Sequence record: CP109674.1
Reading direction: 5' to 3' (one strand)
Origin: a plasmid
DNA: 64,000 nucleotides
In this document: one piece after another, positions 2,710 to 25,947 of the stretch
How the letters are laid out: each line of letters starts with the position of its first letter
How positions within the stretch are numbered: the stretch's first letter is position 1
The notes under the pieces: generated by a model
Seen by the model: only the letters and a program-made list of their open reading frames with translations
Databases searched by the model: none
Told to the model about the DNA's origin: nothing
Made by a program: the position numbers and the translations under genes

Positions 2710-6070
<3,361 letters not shown>

Positions 6071-13434: not shown

Positions 13435-15460
13435 ATGTCACGACGCCATATTTTCACCGAACGGCAGCGAGCAGCGCTGTTCGATCTGCCCACGGACGAA
13501 CTGTCGCTACTGAAGTTCTACACGCTGGGCGATGATGACCTGGAAAACATTAGGCAGCGCCGCAGACCGGAAAACAGGATTGGCTTTGCCCTGCAACTTT
13601 GTGCCTTACGATATCCGGGCCGTGCACTGGCTCCTGGTGAGATGATCCCGCGTGAAGTCCTTTCCTTCGTCGGTGCTCAGCTTGGAGTTCCGGCTGATGC
13701 GCTTCTCACTTATGCCACACGGCGCCAAACCCGTCAGCAGCACATGGACACGCTGCGCGAAATTTACGGCTACAAGACCTTCACGGGCCGTGGTGCCCGT
13801 GATCTGCGGGAGTGGACTTTCGGCCAGGCCGAAGATGCCAGATCAAACGAGGATCTTGCTCATCGTTTTATTGTGCGGTGTCGGGAAACTTCCACCATTC
13901 TGCCCGCAGTATCGACAATCGAGCGCTTGTGCGCGGATGCTCTGGTCGCCGCTGAGCGGCGGATTGAAACGCGGATTGCGGAAAATTTAACAGCGGATGT
14001 TCGCGATCACCTGGACAAACTTCTGAGTGAAATGCTCGCCGGCAATATCAGTCGTTTCATCTGGCTTCGCAACTTCGAGGTTGGTAACAACTCGGCTGCT
14101 GCTAACCGTTTGCTCGACAGGCTCGAATTTCTGCGTACCCTGAATATCAATCATAGTGCTTTGGCCAGCATACCTGCCCATCGCATTGCCCGGCTGCGTC
14201 GGCAGGGTGAACGCTACTTCACCGACGGTTTGCGTGACATCACTTCGGACCGCCGCTGGGCGATCCTTGCCGTCTGTGTTGTGGAGTGGGAAGCGGCGAT
14301 TGCTGATGCCATAGTCGAAACCCATGACAGGATCGTAGGAAAAACCTGGCGGGAAGCGAAGCGCCAGCATGACGAAACAATTTCCGGCTCTAAAGCCACA
14401 CTCACGGATACGATCCGTACCTTCACCGCGCTGGGAGCTTCGTTGCTTGAGGCCCGCAGTGACGGAACCCCGCTGGAGATGGCTGTCGCCAGTTCGGTTG
14501 CATGGGACCGGCTCGCTCAACTGGTAGCGACAGGGACTCAACTCAGCAACACGCTAGCCGATGAGCCTCTTGCATATGTCGGGCAGGGATACCATCGCTT
14601 TCGTCGTTATGCGCCCCGCATGTTGCGCTGTCTGAAGCTCGAAGCCGCGCCGGTCGCCGGACCATTGGTAGCAGCAGCTTTGTCGATCGGAGAGATGAAA
14701 GGTGTTGCATCGCCAGAAAGGCGTTTCCTGCGGCCCAGCTCCAAATGGAACCGTCATTTACGAGCTCAGGAAAAAGGAGATACCCGTCTTTGGGAAGTGG
14801 CGGTACTCTTTCACCTCCGGGATGCTTTTCGTTCCGGAGATGTCTGGCTCGCTCATTCGCGCCGCTATGGTGACCTCAAGCAGGTACTGGTGCCGATGAT
14901 CGCGGCGCAGGAAAATGCAAAACTGGCCGTGCCTTCCAACCCACAGGATTGGCTGGCAGACAGAAAGGCGCGACTCACGATCGCTCTTAAGCGGCTGGCC
15001 CGGGCTGCCCGTAACGGCACTATTCCGCACGGTAGCATAGAAGATGGAACGTTGCGGATCGACAGGTTGACAGCAGACGTGCCGGATGGTGCCGAGGCAC
15101 TCATACTGGATCTGTATCGCCGAATGCCGTCCGTTCGGATTACCGACATGCTGCTTGAAGTTGATGCAGCCCTTGGTTTCACAGATGCGTTTACCCATCT
15201 GAGAACCGGGGCTCCATGTCGCGACCGGATCGGTCTGCTCAACGTCCTGCTCGCTGAAGGGCTCAATCTGGGCCTGCGTAAGATGGCGGAAGCTACAAAC
15301 ACGCATGATTACTGGCAGCTCTCACGCCTTGCCCGCTGGCATGTTGAAAGCGAAGCCATGAACCAGGCATTGGCAATTGTGGTGGCCGCGCAGGGTAAAC
15401 TGCCGATGTCACGCGTCTGGGGGATGGGCACGTCAGCATCGAGCGATGGTCAGTTTTTCC
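13435..15460 (+). pseudogene. tnpA: Tn3-family transposase TnpA, 5' part (aa 1 to about 675), truncated by IS26
   Basis: N-terminus MSRRHIFTERQRAALFDLP… has Tn3-family TnpA architecture. The ORF reads into the IS26 IR at 15461. The 3' part lies at 23625-24504 on the minus strand, and the two parts join in frame (…SSDGQFF|PTARHGE…). Confidence 0.85.
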
Positions 15461-16280
15461 GGCACTGTTGCAAATAGTCGGTGGTGATAAACTTATCATC
15501 CCCTTTTGCTGATGGAGCTGCACATGAACCCATTCAAAGGCCGGCATTTTCAGCGTGACATCATTCTGTGGGCCGTACGCTGGTACTGCAAATACGGCAT
15601 CAGTTACCGTGAGCTGCAGGAGATGCTGGCTGAACGCGGAGTGAATGTCGATCACTCCACGATTTACCGCTGGGTTCAGCGTTATGCGCCTGAAATGGAA
15701 AAACGGCTGCGCTGGTACTGGCGTAACCCTTCCGATCTTTGCCCGTGGCACATGGATGAAACCTACGTGAAGGTCAATGGCCGCTGGGCGTATCTGTACC
15801 GGGCCGTCGACAGCCGGGGCCGCACTGTCGATTTTTATCTCTCCTCCCGTCGTAACAGCAAAGCTGCATACCGGTTTCTGGGTAAAATCCTCAACAACGT
15901 GAAGAAGTGGCAGATCCCGCGATTCATCAACACGGATAAAGCGCCCGCCTATGGTCGCGCGCTTGCTCTGCTCAAACGCGAAGGCCGGTGCCCGTCTGAC
16001 GTTGAACACCGACAGATTAAGTACCGGAACAACGTGATTGAATGCGATCATGGCAAACTGAAACGGATAATCGGCGCCACGCTGGGATTTAAATCCATGA
16101 AGACGGCTTACGCCACCATCAAAGGTATTGAGGTGATGCGTGCACTACGCAAAGGCCAGGCCTCAGCATTTTATTATGGTGATCCCCTGGGCGAAATGCG
16201 CCTGGTAAGCAGAGTTTTTGAAATGTAAGGCCTTTGAATAAGACAAAAGGCTGCCTCATCGCTAACTTTGCAACAGTGCC
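15461..16280 (+). mobile_element. tnp26: IS26 copy 1 (820 bp); tnp26 CDS 15524-16228
   Basis: 14-bp IRs GGCACTGTTGCAAA at both ends. The 234-aa Tnp26 begins MNPFKGRHFQRDIILWAVRWY. The left flank is the 8-bp sequence GTTTTTCC. Confidence 0.95.
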
Positions 16281-16342
16281 GTTCTCCGAATGAAAGCCTG
16301 TCCTCAGCATAGTACCGGGAAGGAGGGAGTGACCATCTCATT
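16281..16342 (-). mobile_element. 62-bp fragment of the left end of an IS5075/IS4321-like (IS110-family) element, truncated by IS26
   Basis: This is the exact reverse complement of 22524-22585, which is the left end of the complete IS110-family element. It abuts 17 bp of the Tn21-type IR. Confidence 0.75.
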
Positions 16343-16354
16343 AAATAAAGCACG

Positions 16355-19321
16355 CTAAGCCGGTTGCAGCGGCCGTAGCGGCCTGAACTTGCCCGCGCCG
16401 ATCTTGGCGCTGCTGCGCCAGAGGTAATCGCCGGTCAGGTTGATGTGCTCCCAGCCGAGCGGCGACAGGTACTGCAACAGGCCGTCATCGACGGCTTGAC
16501 CGTGGCCACGCAAGGCGTTCGCGGCCCGCTCCAGATAGACCGTGTTCCATAGCACGATGGCCGCCGTCACCAGGTTGAGGCCGCTGGCCCGGTAGCGCTG
16601 CTGCTCGAAGCTGCGGTCGCGGATTTCCCCCAGGCGGTTGAAGAACACGGCGCGGGCCAGCGCGTTGCGCGCCTCGCCTTTGTTCAGCCCGGCATGCACG
16701 CGGCGGCGCAGCTCGACGCTTTGCAGCCAGTCCAGGATGAACAGTGTGCGCTCGATGCGTCCCAGCTCACGCAGGGCGACGGCCAGGCCGTTCTGGCGCG
16801 GGTAGCTGCCAAGCTTCCTGAGCATCAGCGAGGCCGTCGCCGTGCCCTGCTTGATCGAGGTGGCCATCCGCAGGATTTCATCCCAATGGGCGCGGACGTG
16901 CTTGATGTTGAGCGTGCCGCCGATCATCGGTTTCAACGCCTCGTAGGTGGCATCGCCCTTCGGGATGTAGAGCTTGGTGTCGCCCAGGTCACGAATGCGC
17001 GGGGCGAAGCGGAAGCCCAGCAGGTGCATCAACGCGAAGACGTGGTCCGTGAACCCTGCCGTGTCGGTGTAGTGCTCCTCGATCCGCAGGTCGGATTCGT
17101 GATACAGCAGGCCGTCGAGCACGTAGGTCGAGTCGCGCACGCCGACGTTCACGACCTTGGTGTGGAACGGCGCGTACTGGTCGGAGATATGGGTGTAGAA
17201 CGTCCGCCCTGGGCTGCTGCCGTATTTCGGATTGATGTGGCCGGTGCTCTCGGCCTTGCTGCCGGTGCGGAAGTTCTGGCCGTCCGACGATGACGTGGTG
17301 CCGTCGCCCCAATGCCCGGCGAAGGGATGTCGGAACTGCGCGTTGACCAGCTCGGCCAGTGCCGCCCCGTAGGTTTCGTCGCGGATGTGCCAGGCTTGCA
17401 GCCAGGCCAGCTTGGCGTAGGTCGTGCCGGGGCACGATTCCGCCATCTTGGTCAGGCCCAGGTTGATCGCGTCGGCGAGGATCGTGGTCAGCAACAGGTT
17501 TTTGTCCTTGGCCAGGTCGCCTGACTTCAGGTGGGCGAAGTGCCGGGTGAAGCCCGTCCATTCGTCTACCTCCAGCAGCAATTCGGTGATCTTGACGTGC
17601 GGTAGGATCATCGCCGTCTGGTCGATCAGGGCCTGTGCGGTATCGGGCACCGCCGCATCGAGCGGCGTGATCTTCAGGCCCGACTCCGTGATGATGGCGT
17701 CCGGCAGCTCGTTGGCCAGCGCCATGCGGTTGACGGTGGCGAGCTGCGTTTCCAGCAGCGTCAGCCGGTCATGCAGGTACTGGTCGCAATCGGTGGCCAC
17801 GGCCAGCGGCAATTCGCTGGCCTGCTTGAGGCTGGCGAATTTCGCGAGCGGCACCAGGTAGTCCTCGAAGTCCTTGAACTGGCGCGAGCCTTGCACCCAG
17901 ATGTCGCCGGAGCGCAGCGCGTTCTTCAGCTCCGACAGCGCGCACAGTTCGTAGTAGCGCCGGTCGATGCCGGTGTCGGTCATCACCAGCTTCTGCCAGC
18001 GCGGCTTGATGAACTCGGTCGGCGCGTCGGTGGGCACCTTGCGGGCGTTGTCGCTGTTCATGCTGCGCAGCACCTCGATGGCGTCGAGTACGTCCTTGGC
18101 GGCGGGCGCGGCCCGCAACTTGAGCACGTCGAGAAATTCCGGCGCGTAGCGGCGCAGCGTGGCGTAGCTCTCGCCGATGCGGTGCAGGAAATCGAAGTCC
18201 TCGGGTTGCGCGAGCCGCTGCGCTTCGGTGACGCTCTCGGCGAAAGCATCCCAGGACATGACGGCCTCGATGGCGGCGAACGGATCGCGGCCCGCTTGCT
18301 TGGCCTCGATCAGCGCCTGGCCGATGCGCCCGAACAGCCGCACCTTGGCATTGATCGCCTTGCCGGATGCCTGGAACTGCTGCTGATGCTTGTTCTTGGC
18401 GGCATTGAACAGCTTGCCCAGGATGCGGTCATGCAGGTCGATGATTTCGTCGGTGACGGTGGCCATGCCCTCGATGGCGAGCGCCACCAGGGTCGCGTAA
18501 CGCCGCTGCGGCTCGAACTTCGCCAGGTCGGCGGGCGTCATCTGGCCGCCCTCGCGGGCGATCTTGAGCAGCCGGTTCTGGTGAACCAGCCGCTCGATGC
18601 CGGAGGGCAGGTCGAGCGCCTGCCACGCCTTGAGGCGTTCGATGTGTTCCAGCATGTGCCGCGAGTTCGGTTTGACCGGGGATTGCCGCAGCCAGGCCAG
18701 CCACGTCGTCTTGCCGTTGTCGCGGCGCTTGAGCAGATCGTCGAGGCGACGGCGATGCACGTCCGTCAGCGGCTCAGCCAAGGCGTCGTAGAGACGCCGG
18801 TTGGCGCGGGTAATCGCTTCGGCGCTCGCCCGCTCGACGGCGTTGAGGGCGGGCACAATGACCGACTGCCGCCGCAGGTGCTCGATCAAGGCTCTGGCCA
18901 GCACGATGCCCTTGTCGGTTTGCATGGCCAGCTCGGTCAGCAACTGGACAGCCTGCCGGTAGTGGCCAATCGTGAACGGCTGGAAGCCGAACACCGTTTG
19001 CAGCTCGACCAGGTGCTCGCGTCGGGTCTGCTCACGCTGCCCGTACTCGTCCCAGCTTTCGATGCCGACCTTGAGCTGGTTGGCGACCAGTCTCAGCAAT
19101 GGCGGGAACGGTGGCTCATCAGCGCCAAGGATGACGCCGGGAAAGCGCAGGTAGCAGAGCTGCACCGCGAAGCCCAGCCGATTGGCCGGGCCGCGCCGCT
19201 GCCGGATGATGGAGAGGTCGCTTTCGCTGAACGTGTAGTGACGGATCAACTCATCCTTGGTGTCCGGCAACGCCAGCAGGCTTTCGCGCTCGGCGGCGGA
19301 GAGGATCGAACGGCGGGGCAT
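16355..19321 (-). CDS. tnpA: Tn21-subgroup transposase TnpA (988 aa)
   Basis: N-terminus [31 protein letters not shown]… and C-terminus …[14 protein letters not shown]. Length is as in Tn21 TnpA. The stop lies within the IR. Confidence 0.9.
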
Positions 19322-19473
19322 GCGGTTTCCTTCTTCTTGAAAACGTAGGTTTGTGACAAGCCCGCCAAGGCAACCGGCGCGGCACGGGAATCAAGGCATT
19401 GCGATTCTCGAAAATAGTTCTTGAAATTCTATTCTTGATTGCATATCATCTCAACGAGTTTCGATAAGAAAGG
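19322..19473. promoter_or_regulatory. AT-rich interval with TTCTTGA repeats between tnpA and the passenger operon; candidate res/promoter
   Basis: Repeats TTCTTGAAA … TTCTTGAAATTCTATTCTTGATT. This is the only sizeable non-coding gap adjacent to tnpA. Confidence 0.35.
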
Positions 19474-19770
19474 ATGCGCATGCGACCGTCTGTTGTGCTT
19501 GACATGAAGCGAAGCGCAGTGCGTGAAGCGGTAGGCCGCTTTCGCGCCGCGAACCCGCGCGTCTTCGGCTCGGTGCTGCATGGCACCGACCGGGATGGCA
19601 GCGACCTCGACCTGTTGGTCGATGCGCTGCCCGGTGCCACGTTGTTGGACTTGGGCGATTTGGAAGAAGAACTGAAATCGCTGCTCGGCGTTGACGTCGA
19701 TCTGCTGACTCCCGGCGACCTGCCGCCGAAGTTCCGGGCCAAGGTGCTCGCGGAGGCGCAACCGATATGA
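19474..19770 (+). CDS. mnt: MNT-type nucleotidyltransferase antitoxin
   Basis: 98-aa ORF with a nucleotidyltransferase motif (GS…HG…DRDGSDLDLLVD). Its end overlaps the start of hepT by 4 nt. Confidence 0.7.
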   Translation: MRMRPSVVLDMKRSAVREAVGRFRAANPRVFGSVLHGTDRDGSDLDLLVDALPGATLLDLGDLEEELKSLLGVDVDLLTPGDLPPKFRAKVLAEAQPI

Positions 19771-20168
19771 GCGAGAACCGCCTGCCCGATTACCTCGACC
19801 ACATTCAGCAGGCCGCAACCGATGCGCGCAGCTTCGTGGAAGGGATGGCCAAGGACGACTTCTTGGCCGACAAGCGCACCCAGCAGGCCGTCATCATGAG
19901 CCTGATCGTCATCGGCGAGGCGGCCACAAAGGTGATGGATGGCTACGTCGAGTTCACCCAGGCGCATGCCGACGTGCCGTGGCGCAGCATGCGCAATATG
20001 CGTAATCGCATGGCTCACGGCTATTTCGACATCAACCTCGATGTGGTGTGGGAGACGGTACAGGAATGGCTGCCGGCGTTGCTCCAGCAATTGCCCGCCG
20101 TGCGTCAGGATGCCGACGATGAAGACCGTAACGACAACTGTGAAAGAGGGATCTCCGATGACTGTTGA
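19767..20168 (+). CDS. hepT: HepT-like HEPN RNase toxin (DUF86)
   Basis: 133-aa ORF with an R-x4-HxY motif (RNRMAHGY), translationally coupled to the mnt gene. Confidence 0.7.
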   Translation: MSENRLPDYLDHIQQAATDARSFVEGMAKDDFLADKRTQQAVIMSLIVIGEAATKVMDGYVEFTQAHADVPWRSMRNMRNRMAHGYFDINLDVVWETVQEWLPALLQQLPAVRQDADDEDRNDNCERGISDDC

Positions 20169-20514
20169 ATCGAGAATATTTTCTGTAGCCGAGTATGTTC
20201 AGCCGTCCGAAGGCGAGCCTATTCGTTCCGTTGTGCTTGAAACCCGAGACTCAATTATCGTGGTTTGGCATGTCCATCCCGGGCAGGAAATTGCGGCTCA
20301 CATTCATCCTCACGGCCAAGACACGTGGACTGTTTTGTCGGGAATGGCTGATTACTTTCAGGGCAATGGGATTGTTCGTGCCCTCAGGGAAGGTGAGATA
20401 GCCGTGGCAAGACCGGGCCAAGTGCACGGGGCGCGAAATACAGGTACCGAGCCATTTGTGTTAGTCTCGGTTGTGGCATCAGCCAATGCCGGTTTCGTAT
20501 TGGCTGAGCGATAG
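20158..20514 (+). CDS. Cupin-domain protein
   Basis: 118-aa ORF with two cupin His-containing motifs (HVHPGQEIAAHIHPHGQD … GQVHGARNTG). Its start overlaps the hepT end. Confidence 0.6.
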   Translation: MTVESRIFSVAEYVQPSEGEPIRSVVLETRDSIIVVWHVHPGQEIAAHIHPHGQDTWTVLSGMADYFQGNGIVRALREGEIAVARPGQVHGARNTGTEPFVLVSVVASANAGFVLAER

Positions 20515-20768
20515 AGCCCAATCTCTGGAGTTGGTCCAATGAGCGGTCGGGGAGATAGGTAACAGACATGCAGCGGACACGGCTGCTAAACCAGGTCGCA
20601 AACCTCCTTGCGTCGCAGCGTGCCGCAAGCGACGCGATCAATCGAATGGGGTCGGCATGAGACTGAACACCATCCAGTTCCCGACCGCGTAGCCGCCTGT
20701 CCTGCCGATCAGGTCTTGACCATCGACGCCTGGGATCAGTCCTGAATGTTCTTGGAGACCACTACGTT

Positions 20769-21095
20769 ATGAGCCGCAGCCGCCGCAAAACACCCATCGT
20801 CGGGCACACGACCTGCGGCAGCGAGCGCGAGGACAAGAAGCTCTGGCATCAGCGCTGGCGCACCCGTGAGCGCACGGCGCTGACCAGCGCGTCGCCCGAA
20901 GCCCTGAGCGCCCATCTGCCCCTGCTGGAAAACCAGGCCAGCAGCGTCTGGTCGATGGGCAAGGATGGCCGCTCCTACTGGCCCGTCAAGCGCCAGGCCG
21001 CCACGGCGGATCGCATCGCCAATCACAAGGGACGCAACCCGCAAGAACGCGCCTCCCTGAAAAAGCGCCTGCTGCGCAAGTGGATGAGCAAATGA
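20769..21095 (+). CDS. Hypothetical basic protein (108 aa, Arg/Lys-rich)
   Basis: ORF with high-GC codon usage consistent with its neighbours. It overlaps the next gene by 16 nt. No recognisable family. Confidence 0.45.
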   Translation: MSRSRRKTPIVGHTTCGSEREDKKLWHQRWRTRERTALTSASPEALSAHLPLLENQASSVWSMGKDGRSYWPVKRQAATADRIANHKGRNPQERASLKKRLLRKWMSK

Positions 21096-21592
21096 AGCTC
21101 TCCTTCCATCAGCACATTGCGCTGTTCTGGATGATCGGTGCTCCGGGCGTCTTCGCGCCCGTGATCGAGAACGCCAAGCGGCCCGATGCCGGCGCCGTCA
21201 TGGCGTGGGGTGTCGCGATCGTGGCGGTGATGATCCTCTTCACCCCTTTGCTGCTGCGCTGTCCACCATTCCGGCGCTGGTATGGCCGGACGGATGCGCT
21301 GTCGGAGCGGCAGCGCCAGGCGCTTGCCGAGCGCGGCCTGCGCCGCTACTACCAGACCGCTTTCGATGACGGCTACGTGCCCCGCGTGATGCCCTACGTG
21401 TGGCGCATCATCTGGACGGTCGGCGGGTTGATGGCTGTGACCGCCGTACTGCCTACCAACACCGGACGGCCAGCCTTCGATGCCTTGGTGGTCTTCTCGA
21501 CCTGGTATCCGATAGGCGTGATGCTGCTGGTTTTCGCGTCGAGGCCCCTTGGCCGGTTGATTCGCCAAAGAGCACAGGAGCGGCGGAAATGA
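21080..21592 (+). CDS. Hypothetical integral membrane protein (170 aa, about 4 TM segments)
   Basis: Hydrophobic segments ALFWMIGAPGVFAPVI, VMAWGVAIVAVMILFTPLLL, IIWTVGGLMAVTAVL and VVFSTWYPIGVMLLVFA. There is an ATGA overlap with the downstream gene. Confidence 0.45.
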   Translation: MDEQMKLSFHQHIALFWMIGAPGVFAPVIENAKRPDAGAVMAWGVAIVAVMILFTPLLLRCPPFRRWYGRTDALSERQRQALAERGLRRYYQTAFDDGYVPRVMPYVWRIIWTVGGLMAVTAVLPTNTGRPAFDALVVFSTWYPIGVMLLVFASRPLGRLIRQRAQERRK

Positions 21593-21960
21593 GCACGTCA
21601 ACCATCGAGGCGCTGGCCAGCGCCTGGGCAAGGATTGCCGAGGAAGCGGAATTCCCCGCTGACTACGAGGGGACTGCCACACCACAAGCGCATCGGGCTA
21701 GCGAAGCTATTCAGGAGCAGATTCGGGAGCGCATCGTCGCCACCAACGACATGCGGCTGTTCAGCCTGCTGCACCTGCTGGGTCAGGCGTCGCTGCGCAT
21801 GGAGCAAGCGCTGTGGCCGGAGGATTACGAGCGGATGACGCGCGAGGTTGAGGAAGCCCTGCGGCAAGCCACCGACGCCAACGCCAGATCGTACACCCAC
21901 GAAGAAGTGATGCAGGCGATGCAGGAACGCATCGACCGGGCGCGAGACAAGCCATGTTGA
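21589..21960 (+). CDS. Hypothetical acidic alpha-helical protein (123 aa)
   Basis: Overlaps the previous gene by 4 nt and tnpR by 7 nt, which suggests an operon. Confidence 0.45.
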   Translation: MSTSTIEALASAWARIAEEAEFPADYEGTATPQAHRASEAIQEQIRERIVATNDMRLFSLLHLLGQASLRMEQALWPEDYERMTREVEEALRQATDANARSYTHEEVMQAMQERIDRARDKPC

Positions 21961-22511
21961 TTGGCTATGCGCGCGTCTCGACGCAGGATCAGAACCTGGA
22001 GCTGCAACGCGAAGCCTTGAGCAAGGCCGGATGTAAAAAGGTCTTCGAGGACAAGGTGAGTGGCACGCGGGCAGACCGGCCTGGCTTGGCCAAGACGCTC
22101 GAAATGCTGCGCGAAGGCGATACTTTGGTCGTCTGGAAGCTCGACCGGCTGGGCCGGTCGGTCAAGCAACTGGTCGATCTGGTCGGCGATCTGCACAAGC
22201 ACGGTGTCCAGTTCAGGAGCCTCACCGACTCCATCGACACCGGCACACCATCCGGGCGGTTCTTCTTCCACGTCATGGCGAGCCTTGCCGAAATGGAGCG
22301 CGAGCTGACCGTCGAGCGCACCCGCGCCGGGCTGGAAGTCGCCAAGCAGCTCGGCCGCAAAGGCGGCCGCAAGCCGAAGATGACCGACAGCAAGATCGAG
22401 TCGGCCAAGAAGCTGCTGGCCAGCGGGGTGCCGCCCAAGGACGTGGCCAAGAACCTCGGCGTGTCCATTCCGACGCTGTACCGCTGGGTGCCAGCCTCCA
22501 CGCACGCTTAG
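21954..22511 (+). CDS. tnpR: Serine resolvase TnpR (last gene of the passenger operon; stop inside the IR)
   Basis: 185-aa ORF with catalytic Ser motif (IGYARVSTQDQ) and a C-terminal HTH (IPTLYRW). It is adjacent to the inner 17 bp of the IR. Confidence 0.8.
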   Translation: MLIGYARVSTQDQNLELQREALSKAGCKKVFEDKVSGTRADRPGLAKTLEMLREGDTLVVWKLDRLGRSVKQLVDLVGDLHKHGVQFRSLTDSIDTGTPSGRFFFHVMASLAEMERELTVERTRAGLEVAKQLGRKGGRKPKMTDSKIESAKKLLASGVPPKDVAKNLGVSIPTLYRWVPASTHA

Positions 22512-22523
22512 CGTGCTTTATTT

Positions 22524-23591
22524 AATGAGATGGTCACTCCCTCCTTCCCGGTACTATGCTGAGGACAGGCTTTCATTCGGAGAACTATCATGGAAAACAT
22601 TGCGCTCATTGGTATCGATCTGGGTAAAAACTCTTTCCATATTCATTGCCAGGATCGTCGCGGGAAGGCTGTTTACCGTAAAAAATTTACCCGGCCAAAG
22701 TTGATCGAATTTTTGGCGACATGCCCCGCTACAACCATCGCAATGGAAGCCTGTGGCGGTTCTCACTTTATGGCACGCAAGTTGGAAGAGTTGGGGCATT
22801 CCCCAAAGCTGATATCACCACAATTTGTCCGCCCGTTCGTTAAAAGCAATAAAAACGACTTTGTCGACGCCGAAGCTATTTGTGAAGCTGCATCGCGTCC
22901 GTCTATGCGTTTTGTGCAGCCCAGAACGGAATCTCAGCAGGCAATGCGGGCTCTGCATCGTGTCCGTGAATCCCTGGTTCAGGATAAGGTAAAAACAACC
23001 AATCAAATGCATGCTTTTCTGCTGGAATTTGGCATTAGCGTTCCCCGAGGAGCTGCCGTTATTAGCCGACTGAGTACCATTCTTGAGGACAATAGTTTGC
23101 CTCTTTACCTCAGCCAGTTATTGCTGAAATTACAACAGCATTATCACTATCTTGTTGAGCAGATTAAAGATTTGGAATCCCAGTTGAAACGAAAGTTGGA
23201 CGAAGATGAGGTTGGACAGCGCTTGCTGAGCATTCCCTGCGTCGGAACACTGACAGCGAGTACTATTTCAACTGAGATTGGCGACGGGAAGCAGTACGCC
23301 AGCAGCCGTGACTTTGCGGCGGCAACAGGGCTTGTACCTCGGCAGTACAGCACGGGAGGTAGGACGACATTGCTGGGAATTAGTAAGCGAGGTAATAAAA
23401 AGATCCGAACTTTGTTGGTTCAATGTGCCAGGGTATTCATACAAAAACTGGAACACCAGTCTGGCAAATTGGCCGATTGGGTCAGGGATTTACTGTGCCG
23501 GAAAAGCAACTTTGTCGTCACTTGTGCTCTGGCAAACAAGCTGGCCAGAATAGCCTGGGCCCTAACGGCACGACAGCAAACTTATGTAGCA
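22524..23591 (+). mobile_element. IS5075/IS4321-like IS110-family element inserted in the Tn21-type IR; its right end is apparently truncated where it abuts the Tn5403-like IR
   Basis: It starts immediately after 17 bp of IR. The transposase ORF 22590-23609 (339 aa, begins MENIALIGIDLGKNSF…) reads through into the Tn5403 IR. The expected right-hand ~250 bp and the remaining 21 bp of the Tn21-type IR are absent. Confidence 0.7.
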
Positions 23592-23609
23592 GGGGTCGGT
23601 TCCGGCTGA
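22590..23609 (+). CDS. IS110-family (IS1111 subgroup) transposase; C-terminus possibly altered by truncation
   Basis: The DEDD transposase N-terminus IGIDLGKNSF is typical of IS110-family elements. The stop codon lies inside the adjoining Tn5403 IR. Confidence 0.7.
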   Translation: MENIALIGIDLGKNSFHIHCQDRRGKAVYRKKFTRPKLIEFLATCPATTIAMEACGGSHFMARKLEELGHSPKLISPQFVRPFVKSNKNDFVDAEAICEAASRPSMRFVQPRTESQQAMRALHRVRESLVQDKVKTTNQMHAFLLEFGISVPRGAAVISRLSTILEDNSLPLYLSQLLLKLQQHYHYLVEQIKDLESQLKRKLDEDEVGQRLLSIPCVGTLTASTISTEIGDGKQYASSRDFAAATGLVPRQYSTGGRTTLLGISKRGNKKIRTLLVQCARVFIQKLEHQSGKLADWVRDLLCRKSNFVVTCALANKLARIAWALTARQQTYVAGVGSG

Positions 23610-23629
23610 GGGCGAAATGACACCCTAAG
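23592..23629 (+). repeat. 38-bp terminal IR of the Tn5403-like transposon (tnpA end)
   Basis: Identical to 12702-12739. The tnpA stop lies inside it. Confidence 0.8.
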
Positions 23630-24504
23630 CTTTCGGTTCCTTGGGCCAAAGATATTCGCCAGTCAGTAGAATGTGCGCCCAGCCCAATGGGGATATGTGG
23701 GGAAGAAATTCAGGGGGAACATCCAACCCTTCGTTCCGCCGCTCCGTGACGGCATGACCAAGATGGACGGTATTCCAGTAAATGATCACCGCAGTCAATA
23801 AATTGAGCCCAGCGATTCGGTAGTGCTGCCCCTCTGTCGTGCGATCGCGAATTTCCCCCTGCCTCCCGATACGGAGCGCATTTTTGAGCGCATGGTGGGC
23901 CTCTCCCTTGTTAAGACCGATCTGAGCACGCCGCTGCATGTCCGTATCCAGGATCCACTCAATAATGAAAAGGGTCCGTTCAATACGACCAACTTCACGA
24001 AGCGCAACTGCAAGGTTGTTTTGTCGTGGGTAAGAAGCGAGCTTGCGCAGGAGTTGGCTGGGCCTGATTTTGCCAGCGGTCATCGTCGCGGCACAACGGA
24101 AAATATCAGGCCAGTTCGCAACGATAAGATCCTCCCGGGCTTTTCCACCTACCAACTTGCGTAACTCCCTGGGGGTCGTATCGGGATTAAATACGTACAA
24201 CCGCTTCGATGGCAGATCCCTGATTCGCAGAACGAGATTGTAGCCGAGCAGGCTACTGGCTCCGAACAAATGGTCGGTGAATCCTGCTGTATCGGCATAC
24301 TGTTCGCGAACATGGCGACCGACCTCGTTCATCAGTAGTCCATCGAGAATATACGGTGCCTCGCTCACGGTCGCCGGGATCGACTGACAAGCGAATGGCG
24401 CGAACTGGTCGCTTACGTGAGTATACGCTTTGAGGCCGGGAACAGAACCATATTTGGCATTGACCATGTTCATGGCTTCGCCATGCCGCGCTGTCGGGAA
24501 AAAC
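23625..24504 (-). pseudogene. tnpA: Tn3-family TnpA, 3' part (about 293 aa), the continuation of the fragment at 13435-15460
   Basis: C-terminal TnpA homology (…NAKYGSVPGLKAYTHVSDQFAPF…). Its junction with IS26 carries GGAAAAAC, the reverse complement of GTTTTTCC. Confidence 0.85.

Positions 24505-25947
<1,443 letters not shown>

Follow-up and report, generated by a model that had tools for sequence, protein, structure and literature searches.

Three small genes upstream of the resolvase gene of the Tn3-family transposon ISPa38 and their mosaic distribution

Three overlapping genes in a presumed res-driven operon

In a stretch of 64,000 nucleotides from a plasmid (record CP109674.1; referred to in full as the window), three small open reading frames (ORFs), here called ORF1, ORF2, and ORF3, precede the serine resolvase gene tnpR of ISPa38, also called TnPa38, a catalogued Tn3-family transposon of the Tn21 subgroup. 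ORF1 (20769–21095, + strand) encodes a very basic protein of 108 amino acids (aa) with a pI of 11.5 and 25 lysine and arginine residues; ORF2 (21092–21592, +) encodes a protein of 166 aa with four hydrophobic segments and a basic central loop; and ORF3 (21589–21960, +) encodes an acidic protein of 123 aa with a pI of 4.8 and five predicted helices. The original prediction, made from the sequence alone, had placed a basic, a membrane, and an acidic protein at this site, which the coordinates, isoelectric points, and hydrophobic segments bear out. Consecutive genes overlap, by ATGA at 21092–21095 and again at 21589–21592, and by ATGTTGA at 21954–21960, where ORF3 runs physically into tnpR (21954–22511, +; 185 aa; Pfam Resolvase, 7e-49, and HTH_7), the stop codon of which lies inside the terminal repeat. 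The 4-nt and 7-nt overlaps had been predicted correctly. The third, of 16 nt, and a length of 170 aa for ORF2 would require a GTG start at 21080, but RefSeq and the homologues, including one that is only 38% identical, use the ATG, and the overlap of ORF1 and ORF2 is therefore 4 nt.

The three ORFs are genuine genes under purifying selection and not chance ORFs of GC-rich DNA. Their homologues, clustered at 90% identity, form 333 clusters for ORF1, 122 for ORF2, and 448 for ORF3, with conserved lengths. Against diverged copies, the ratio of nonsynonymous to synonymous substitution rates (dN/dS) is 0.13–0.21 overall (ORF1, 0.13–0.21; ORF2, 0.17; ORF3, 0.16), the value for tnpR being 0.09. The G+C content at third codon positions (GC3) is 0.85 in ORF1, 0.81 in ORF2, and 0.76 in ORF3, similar to that of tnpR (0.85), as had been noted from codon usage. 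Conservation and coding signal, on which the prediction had staked the three ORFs, are both present in related elements.

The absence of recognizable family motifs was likewise confirmed. No significant match was found for ORF1, ORF2, or ORF3 in Pfam, NCBIfam, PADLOC, or PHROGs; PADLOC-DB 2.0 returned 0 defence families for the three at E ≤ 1, and PDB profile searches with A1, A2, and A4 gave nothing significant. Structure prediction, which had been proposed as a check, gave a helical AlphaFold2 (AF2) model for ORF1 (predicted local distance difference test, pLDDT, 69), for which no fold match was found, and the five-helix protein for ORF3. The comparison of ORF2 with PHROG 16918, a holin family, remained below threshold (E 0.01, no domain passing), and Pfam yielded no holin match for it.

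The locus had also been called undescribed. This does not hold for the sequences, which have long been known and annotated as hypothetical, although their function is without a published account. The segment 20600–22000 is present at 100% identity in more than 1,400 PLSDB plasmids from dozens of genera, among them pFBAOT6, the tnpA of which is listed in RefSeq as “Tn3-like element ISPa38 family transposase”. RefSeq holds the three proteins as WP_003100858, WP_003100856, and WP_003100853, all “hypothetical”. The element has been described as 6,455 bp long with eight genes, in agreement with the gene order in the window, and ORF1–3 were there termed “passenger genes of unknown function” (PMC12466754); the cupin gene of ISPa38 had been noted earlier (PMC3735179). 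Literature searches by accession numbers and by N-terminal motif strings gave no match, and we found no paper analysing these genes.

ISPa38 is ordered res > MNT > HEPN > cupin > stub > ORF1 > ORF2 > ORF3 > tnpR, with all genes from mntA to tnpR on the + strand. The transposase gene tnpA (16355–19321, −; 988 aa; NCBIfam transpos_Tn3, 1310 bits; named for ISPa38 in RefSeq) is separated from mntA by a gap of 152 bp (19322–19473). This gap contains repeated TTCTTGA motifs and the only sigma-70-like sites of the transposon interior (19200–22511), at 19421–19449 (+) and 19454–19426 (−). In the related transposon TnSod9, res lies at the same position (PMC7157771); on the strength of position, motifs, and this analogy, the gap is presumed to be res with divergent promoters. 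ORF1–3 are situated between the presumed res and tnpR and are oriented with the presumed res-driven operon. We infer that they are co-transcribed with it and that tnpR is translationally coupled to ORF3. No structured RNA was found in the region with Rfam.

The genes next to the presumed res encode a toxin–antitoxin (TA) pair: an MNT-type antitoxin (19474–19770, +; Pfam NTP_transf_2, 4e-9; NCBIfam MntA, 5e-9) and a HEPN (HepT-like) toxin (19767–20168, +; Pfam HepT-like, 9e-27), the 3′ end of the latter gene being fused to the start of a Cupin_2 gene (20158–20514, +; Pfam Cupin_2, 5e-13). The trio thus lies between the HEPN/MNT pair and tnpR within a transposon, as originally stated, but it does not directly follow HEPN: the cupin gene and a spacer of 254 bp intervene. 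In this spacer, 20683–20745 (+) encodes DRVAACPADQVLTIDAWDQS*, the last 20 codons and stop of a lost 131-aa gene, with 20/20 aa identical to the C-terminus of orf131 in locus L139 (tblastn, E 6e-10). It is followed by a 23-nt leader of ORF1 (20746–20768, +) that contains GGAGA and is conserved in ISPa38, L144, and L139. An intact orf131 precedes ORF1 in L187, L139, and L085, and the metagenome contig L187 shows the order MNT-HEPN-orf131-ORF1-ORF3-tnpR. The cupin gene is a later insertion: its GC3 is 0.49, as against 0.76–0.85 in its neighbours, and it is absent from the relatives L187, L191, and L004. ISPa38 thus derives from an arrangement such as that of L187, most of orf131 having been replaced by the cupin gene, with its foreign composition, and ORF2 having been added.

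The trio as a mosaic, and ORF1–ORF3 in a second backbone

The trio had been proposed to be a three-gene module whose co-occurrence could be checked in other genomes and transposons. A tally restricted to metagenome loci with enough downstream sequence (n = 67) does not support a fixed module: 27 loci carry the trio, 23 carry ORF1 and ORF3 without ORF2, and 17 carry ORF1 without a close ORF3, including loci with the order HEPN-ORF1-tnpR. ORF1 occurs without ORF3 in L005–7, L185–186, phage contigs, and islands, and ORF3 occurs without ORF1 in L143. PLSDB records matched number 1,544 for ORF1, 960 for ORF3, and 829 for ORF2. The roughly 600 additional plasmids matched by ORF1 relative to ORF3 are due to an ISPa38 remnant, found on many Klebsiella and Enterobacter plasmids, that is cut exactly at ORF1 codon 102 (H41–H51; L087, L088 6001–6306).

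ORF2 is flanked exactly by AAATGA junctions on both sides. Elements without it run ...AGCAAATGA(ORF3), and those with it run ...AGCAAATGA(ORF2)...GGAAATGA(ORF3). Homologues of ORF2 with 38–60% identity are found solitary in gene arrays of other mobile elements. ORF2 is an independently distributed membrane-protein gene, an add-on placed between ORF1 and ORF3. In several records, ORF2 and truncated forms of it are labelled “TniA protein” or “transposase” (P0246, P0247; H31, H90, H103); as ORF2 has no transposase domain, these labels appear to be propagated mis-annotations.

ORF1 and ORF3 recur in a second backbone of another Tn3 subgroup, in which TnpA is only 22–24% identical and tnpR and tnpA are co-linear. 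In L144, the block that diverges from tnpR reads Gp49 toxin, HTH_37 antitoxin, TnpC-like regulator, ORF1, ORF3. It matches CP017294 at 100% identity; this accession is listed for Tn5501.12, the TA side of which has been described as Tn4662a-like (PMC7157771). Copies from Cupriavidus and Ralstonia have the order TnpC-like gene, orf131, ORF1, ORF2, ORF3, with aa identities to the window of 91%, 93%, and 84%. The TnpC-like protein matches NCBIfam NF041282 (“Tn3 family transposase post-transcriptional regulator TnpC”) with an E value of 2e-15, which is below the equivalog cut-off. Between ISPa38 and the Tn5501.12/Tn4662a-type element, DNA homology is confined to ORF1, ORF3, and about 30 nt of leader. 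The conserved unit is therefore ORF1–ORF3 with its leader, present in at least two unrelated Tn3-family backbones, downstream of a TA pair next to res. In the second backbone, 13–15 nt of the tnpR start (ATGTTGATCGGCT) remain after ORF3 before homology stops, which suggests that the cassette originated in a tnpR-coupled context. In the Tn4662a-like loci L195, L197, and L198 (about 5330–5750), the gene after ORF1 has just 38% identity to ORF3 and is either a divergent allele or a replacement in that slot.

The 3′ end of ORF3 is retained beside tnpR even where the rest of the gene has been lost. L146, from the Aeromonas veronii plasmid AP021941, is a TnSod9-like element with the order MNT-HEPN-tnpR. 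Residues 1–118 of its 145-aa HEPN protein (4219–4656) are 93% identical to the HEPN protein of the window; the final 30 residues resemble the C-terminus of ORF3 (60% identity), and the gene again ends in a 7-nt overlap with the start of tnpR. In L156 (MNT-HEPN-ORF1-tnpR), ORF3 codons 97–123 are left directly upstream of tnpR. The start of tnpR is preceded by a weak purine-rich stretch only. The retention of the last ~90 nt of ORF3 with tnpR despite deletions fits a role in cis, and the 3′ end of ORF3 may well serve as the region of translation initiation or coupling for tnpR. The HEPN toxin of L146 is itself a chimera that ends in ORF3-derived residues; the published “minimal” HEPN/MNT transposon layout is thus probably the deletion product of an ORF3-containing ancestor.

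When 1.84 billion representative proteins were searched with a profile, 1,166 members of the ORF1 family were recovered at E ≤ 1e-3, of which 288 reached E ≤ 1e-10; the 1,166 are cluster representatives at 50% identity. Most are 100–112 aa long. The motifs MSRSxRKTP, SE..DK..WH.R.R..ER, and VS..W.M.KDG and a terminal K are kept at 31–47% identity, and E19, K23, W26, H27, R31, G67, and K108 are invariant. Pfam has no match for any of 53 diverse members, and no PDB sequence match was obtained; NCBIfam, PADLOC, and PHROGs searched with diverse and phage members returned nothing.

ORF1-family genes also stand apart from transposons. A member is present in 47 IMG/VR viral contigs, three of which are ISPa38 itself; the others encode proteins of 74–137 aa, mostly shorter than ORF1, that keep the N-terminal core and the ...MRK end. 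The gene is solitary in these contigs, often between lysis genes and terminase or portal genes; no conserved partner gene was found in the phage contigs, the neighbours being lysis, terminase, portal, or unrelated genes. A region resembling an integrative and conjugative element (ICE) contains two ORF1 paralogues together with a ParB-like protein and DNA methyltransferases, and further members occur in small islands in which an integrase and a TA pair, but neither a Tn3 transposase nor a resolvase, are present. ORF1 is thus a member of a large unnamed family of very basic proteins of 75–110 aa that also occurs solitary in prophage-like contigs and islands.

Candidate roles of ORF1–3

The closest known counterparts by position are the TA pairs embedded in Tn3 transposition modules (PMC7157771). 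As is presumed for ORF1–3, these pairs have their place beside res within the resolvase operon, apart from the usual passenger genes; they recur across subgroups, have apparently been exchanged by recombination, and are expected to be expressed from the TnpR-controlled res promoter. ORF1–3 differ from them in having no TA family match and no obligate pairing, in lying distal to the TA pair, and in that ORF3 overlaps tnpR. The same study lists one HEPN/MNT case, TnSod9, which does not have ORF1–3. Tn6374/TnSod9 (4.4 kb) has the same type of backbone as ISPa38 and the same TA family, but ORF1, ORF2, and the cupin gene are missing from it, and all that is left of ORF3 is its last 30 codons, joined to HEPN. 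The 4.4-kb Tn6374, consisting only of tnpA, MNT, HEPN, and tnpR, transposed into pBP136Km (PMC5501780). ORF1–3 are therefore not needed for transposition, and they share the position and probable regulation, but not the sequence families, of TA- and TnpC-type genes.

TnpC, for example that of Tn4652, is an accessory protein encoded by Tn3-family elements; it is acidic and helical and has only about 120 aa. Immediately upstream of ORF1, Tn4662a/Tn5501.12-type elements have a TnpC-like gene, and those from Cupriavidus have one with orf131 between. ORF1–3 are nevertheless unlike TnpC in that none matches NF041282, and ISPa38 itself has no TnpC-like gene. A third parallel is offered by phage morons and small anti-defence genes, such as ArdD of Tn5053, which are single genes scattered over phages, ICEs, and transposons. 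The ORF1 family resembles the morons in lying at module boundaries (the lysis/terminase border) without fixed partners, a comparison of distribution only; no similarity in sequence or fold to known anti-restriction or anti-defence proteins was found for it.

ORF1–3 are best read as neither transposition machinery nor a demonstrable three-part defence system. That they are instead establishment or maintenance cargo of the res–tnpR operon is, with its structural claims included, a proposal to which we give an even chance. In a cell free of TnpR, the res promoter would fire, and the TA pair, ORF1–3, and lastly TnpR would be produced, the translation of TnpR being coupled to that of ORF3; TnpR would then repress the operon. 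A TnpR-repressed res promoter would thus give a burst of products on entry into a TnpR-free cell, followed by shut-down, a logic that has been proposed for embedded TA pairs (PMC7157771). ORF1, being very basic and having invariant charged and aromatic residues, may bind either nucleic acid or some conserved factor of the host. ORF3 could be an acidic, helical partner or modulator of ORF1, or might merely deliver ribosomes to tnpR. Both proteins would act on the biology of the host or of the carrier element.

Several points weigh against this proposal. The recurrent TnpC-like neighbour and the close tie to tnpR are just as compatible with a role in regulating transposition or resolution. A weak terminator-like hairpin at 20474–20491 lies in the path that read-through from the putative res promoter would take across the cupin insertion. 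Relatives of ORF1 are rare in cultured phages, with one among 50,697 GenBank records, beside a putative holin. Finally, confidence in the AF2 models, which have shallow alignments behind them, is moderate (pLDDT 69 and 77.5).

A more far-reaching version would have ORF1 found a new and widespread family of small basic proteins, shared by Tn3-type transposons, ICE-like islands, and prophages and directed at a specific target, for example in anti-defence or host takeover; ORF1 would be made in a burst from the TnpR-repressed res promoter, and ORF3 would act as a dedicated partner that gates resolvase synthesis. We put this forward as tentative; the computational evidence so far points to no surprising mechanism.

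The most serious alternative to a cargo role is that ORF1 and ORF3 serve specifically to regulate transposition or cointegrate resolution, perhaps by tuning the levels or activity of TnpA or TnpR. TnpC, after all, regulates the Tn4652 transposase post-transcriptionally, and the second backbone has ORF1–ORF3 straight after the gene matching NF041282 (E 2e-15). Both genes belong to an operon next to res, with an overlap into tnpR; the cassette has been kept across two Tn3 subgroups, and the ORF3 tail always stays with tnpR. Against this, solitary ORF1-family genes are found in prophage-like contigs, ICE-like regions, and islands without Tn3 transposase or resolvase, and the sister element Tn6374/TnSod9 transposes without ORF1 and ORF3 (PMC5501780). 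Comparison by hhalign of ORF3 and of the ORF1 family with the TnpC-like protein gave a probability below 1%, and kinship of ORF1 or ORF3 with TnpC-like proteins was dropped. We consider such regulation rather unlikely.

The reading originally offered likened the trio to small cassettes for phage defence or abortive infection and to exclusion systems, in which ORF2 would be the membrane effector. Its appeal lies in the composition of basic, four-transmembrane, and acidic proteins, in the location beside a TA pair on a mobile element, and, one may add, in the weak, sub-threshold holin match of ORF2. The components, however, show no obligate co-occurrence, and ORF2 is a clean insertion into an older ORF1–ORF3 pair. 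PADLOC matches none of the three, and prophage-like contigs themselves carry relatives of ORF1. The defence reading accordingly fared poorly, and we regard it as improbable.

That ORF1–3 are neutral hitch-hikers, kept only to carry transcript and ribosomes to tnpR, would explain why the ORF3 tail is kept as a tnpR leader although ORF3 is destroyed and why Tn6374 does without these genes. It sits badly with protein-level purifying selection on all three genes, with the invariance of ORF1 residues across some 1,166 clusters in very different contexts, and with the retention of the cassette in Tn4662a-type elements in which no tnpR follows, and it is very improbable. Least probable of all is a second TA-like addiction pair of basic ORF1 and acidic ORF3: for all their opposite charges, their overlapping or neighbouring genes, and the tendency of this transposon lineage to gather TA pairs next to res (PMC7157771), each gene occurs without the other and neither matches a TA family in Pfam or NCBIfam.

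Tn3-family elements have genes between res and tnpR only as an exception, and so far TA pairs alone have been discussed there, as possible stabilizers of transposons and plasmids that have just arrived. A conserved cassette of non-TA genes within that operon offers a tractable way to ask how transposons establish themselves, the more so as its first gene belongs to an unannotated family, with residues invariant across more than 1,000 clusters, and its last gene is putatively tied translationally to the resolvase. ISPa38 and its relatives are found on more than 1,500 sequenced plasmids, many of them with carbapenemase or tetracycline resistance genes. Were ORF1 to act in anti-defence or host takeover, the establishment functions of Tn3 modules would extend beyond TA pairs, on more than 1,000 clinical resistance plasmids; should the genes prove neutral or merely regulatory, the result would be a useful but ordinary annotation.

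Spread and state of the ISPa38 copy

In a scan of one genome per species, relatives of ORF1 were found in at least 171 species. The best 80 species matches are nearly all identical ISPa38 copies from many beta- and gammaproteobacterial genera; as it returns almost solely such copies, the scan measures spread and not diversity. Tn1403 was considered as the identity of the element and rejected, the orfABCD cargo of Tn1403/Tn1013 being an anion transporter, UspA, a chaperone, and a DNA-binding protein.

The terminal inverted repeats, about 39 bp when intact, are incomplete in the window, with the inner 18 bp left at each end (16343–16360 and 22506–22523). An IS110-family element breaks each of them at the equivalent point, 21 bp from its outer end, and the two insertions face opposite ways: on the left, the outer part has been displaced by an insertion of which a remnant remains at 16281–16342, and on the right, the repeat is broken at 22524 by an element with its transposase at 22590–23609. 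The result is a perfect inverted repeat of 80 nt (16281–16360 and 22506–22585). By computation these elements belong to the IS110 family; from their appearance, we presume them to be of the repeat-targeting IS4321/IS5075 type. With both repeats interrupted, this copy of ISPa38 probably cannot move on its own.

From one insertion point to the other (16343–22523), the element measures 6,181 bp, that is, 6,455 − 2 × 21 − 232. This equals the published size minus the displaced repeat ends and a 232-bp deletion, and supports the identification as ISPa38. The deletion, relative to the copy of pFBAOT6, joins the 3′ end of HEPN to the start of the cupin gene (20100–20168 in the window, compared with 5300–5560 in L001). 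With it, an ORF of 57 aa was lost and the C-terminal tail of HEPN was altered so that its gene overlaps the cupin start. ISPa38 variants with and without the deletion are both common.

Many copies carry an extra serine-recombinase gene, 49–56% identical to TnpR, just upstream of mntA (L009 2106–2630, L022 3785–4336, L026, L064, L082 4589–5113, and L146 3222–3797); in L082 it stands in place of the TA pair. Such elements, having tnpR as well, encode two resolvase-like proteins.

Outside ISPa38, the left IS110-family copy is cut by IS26. One Tn3-family transposase gene is split into two parts, 13435–15477 (+; profile positions 2–670) and 23625–24551 (−; profile positions 668–954), which are separated by about 8 kb and point in opposite directions. 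Each abuts an IS26 (15506–16228 and 24557–25279), as expected after an inversion mediated by IS26. Next to the latter IS26, 25273–25929 (−) encodes what we take to be a TetR-family repressor similar to tetR(D), which suggests a multiresistance region.

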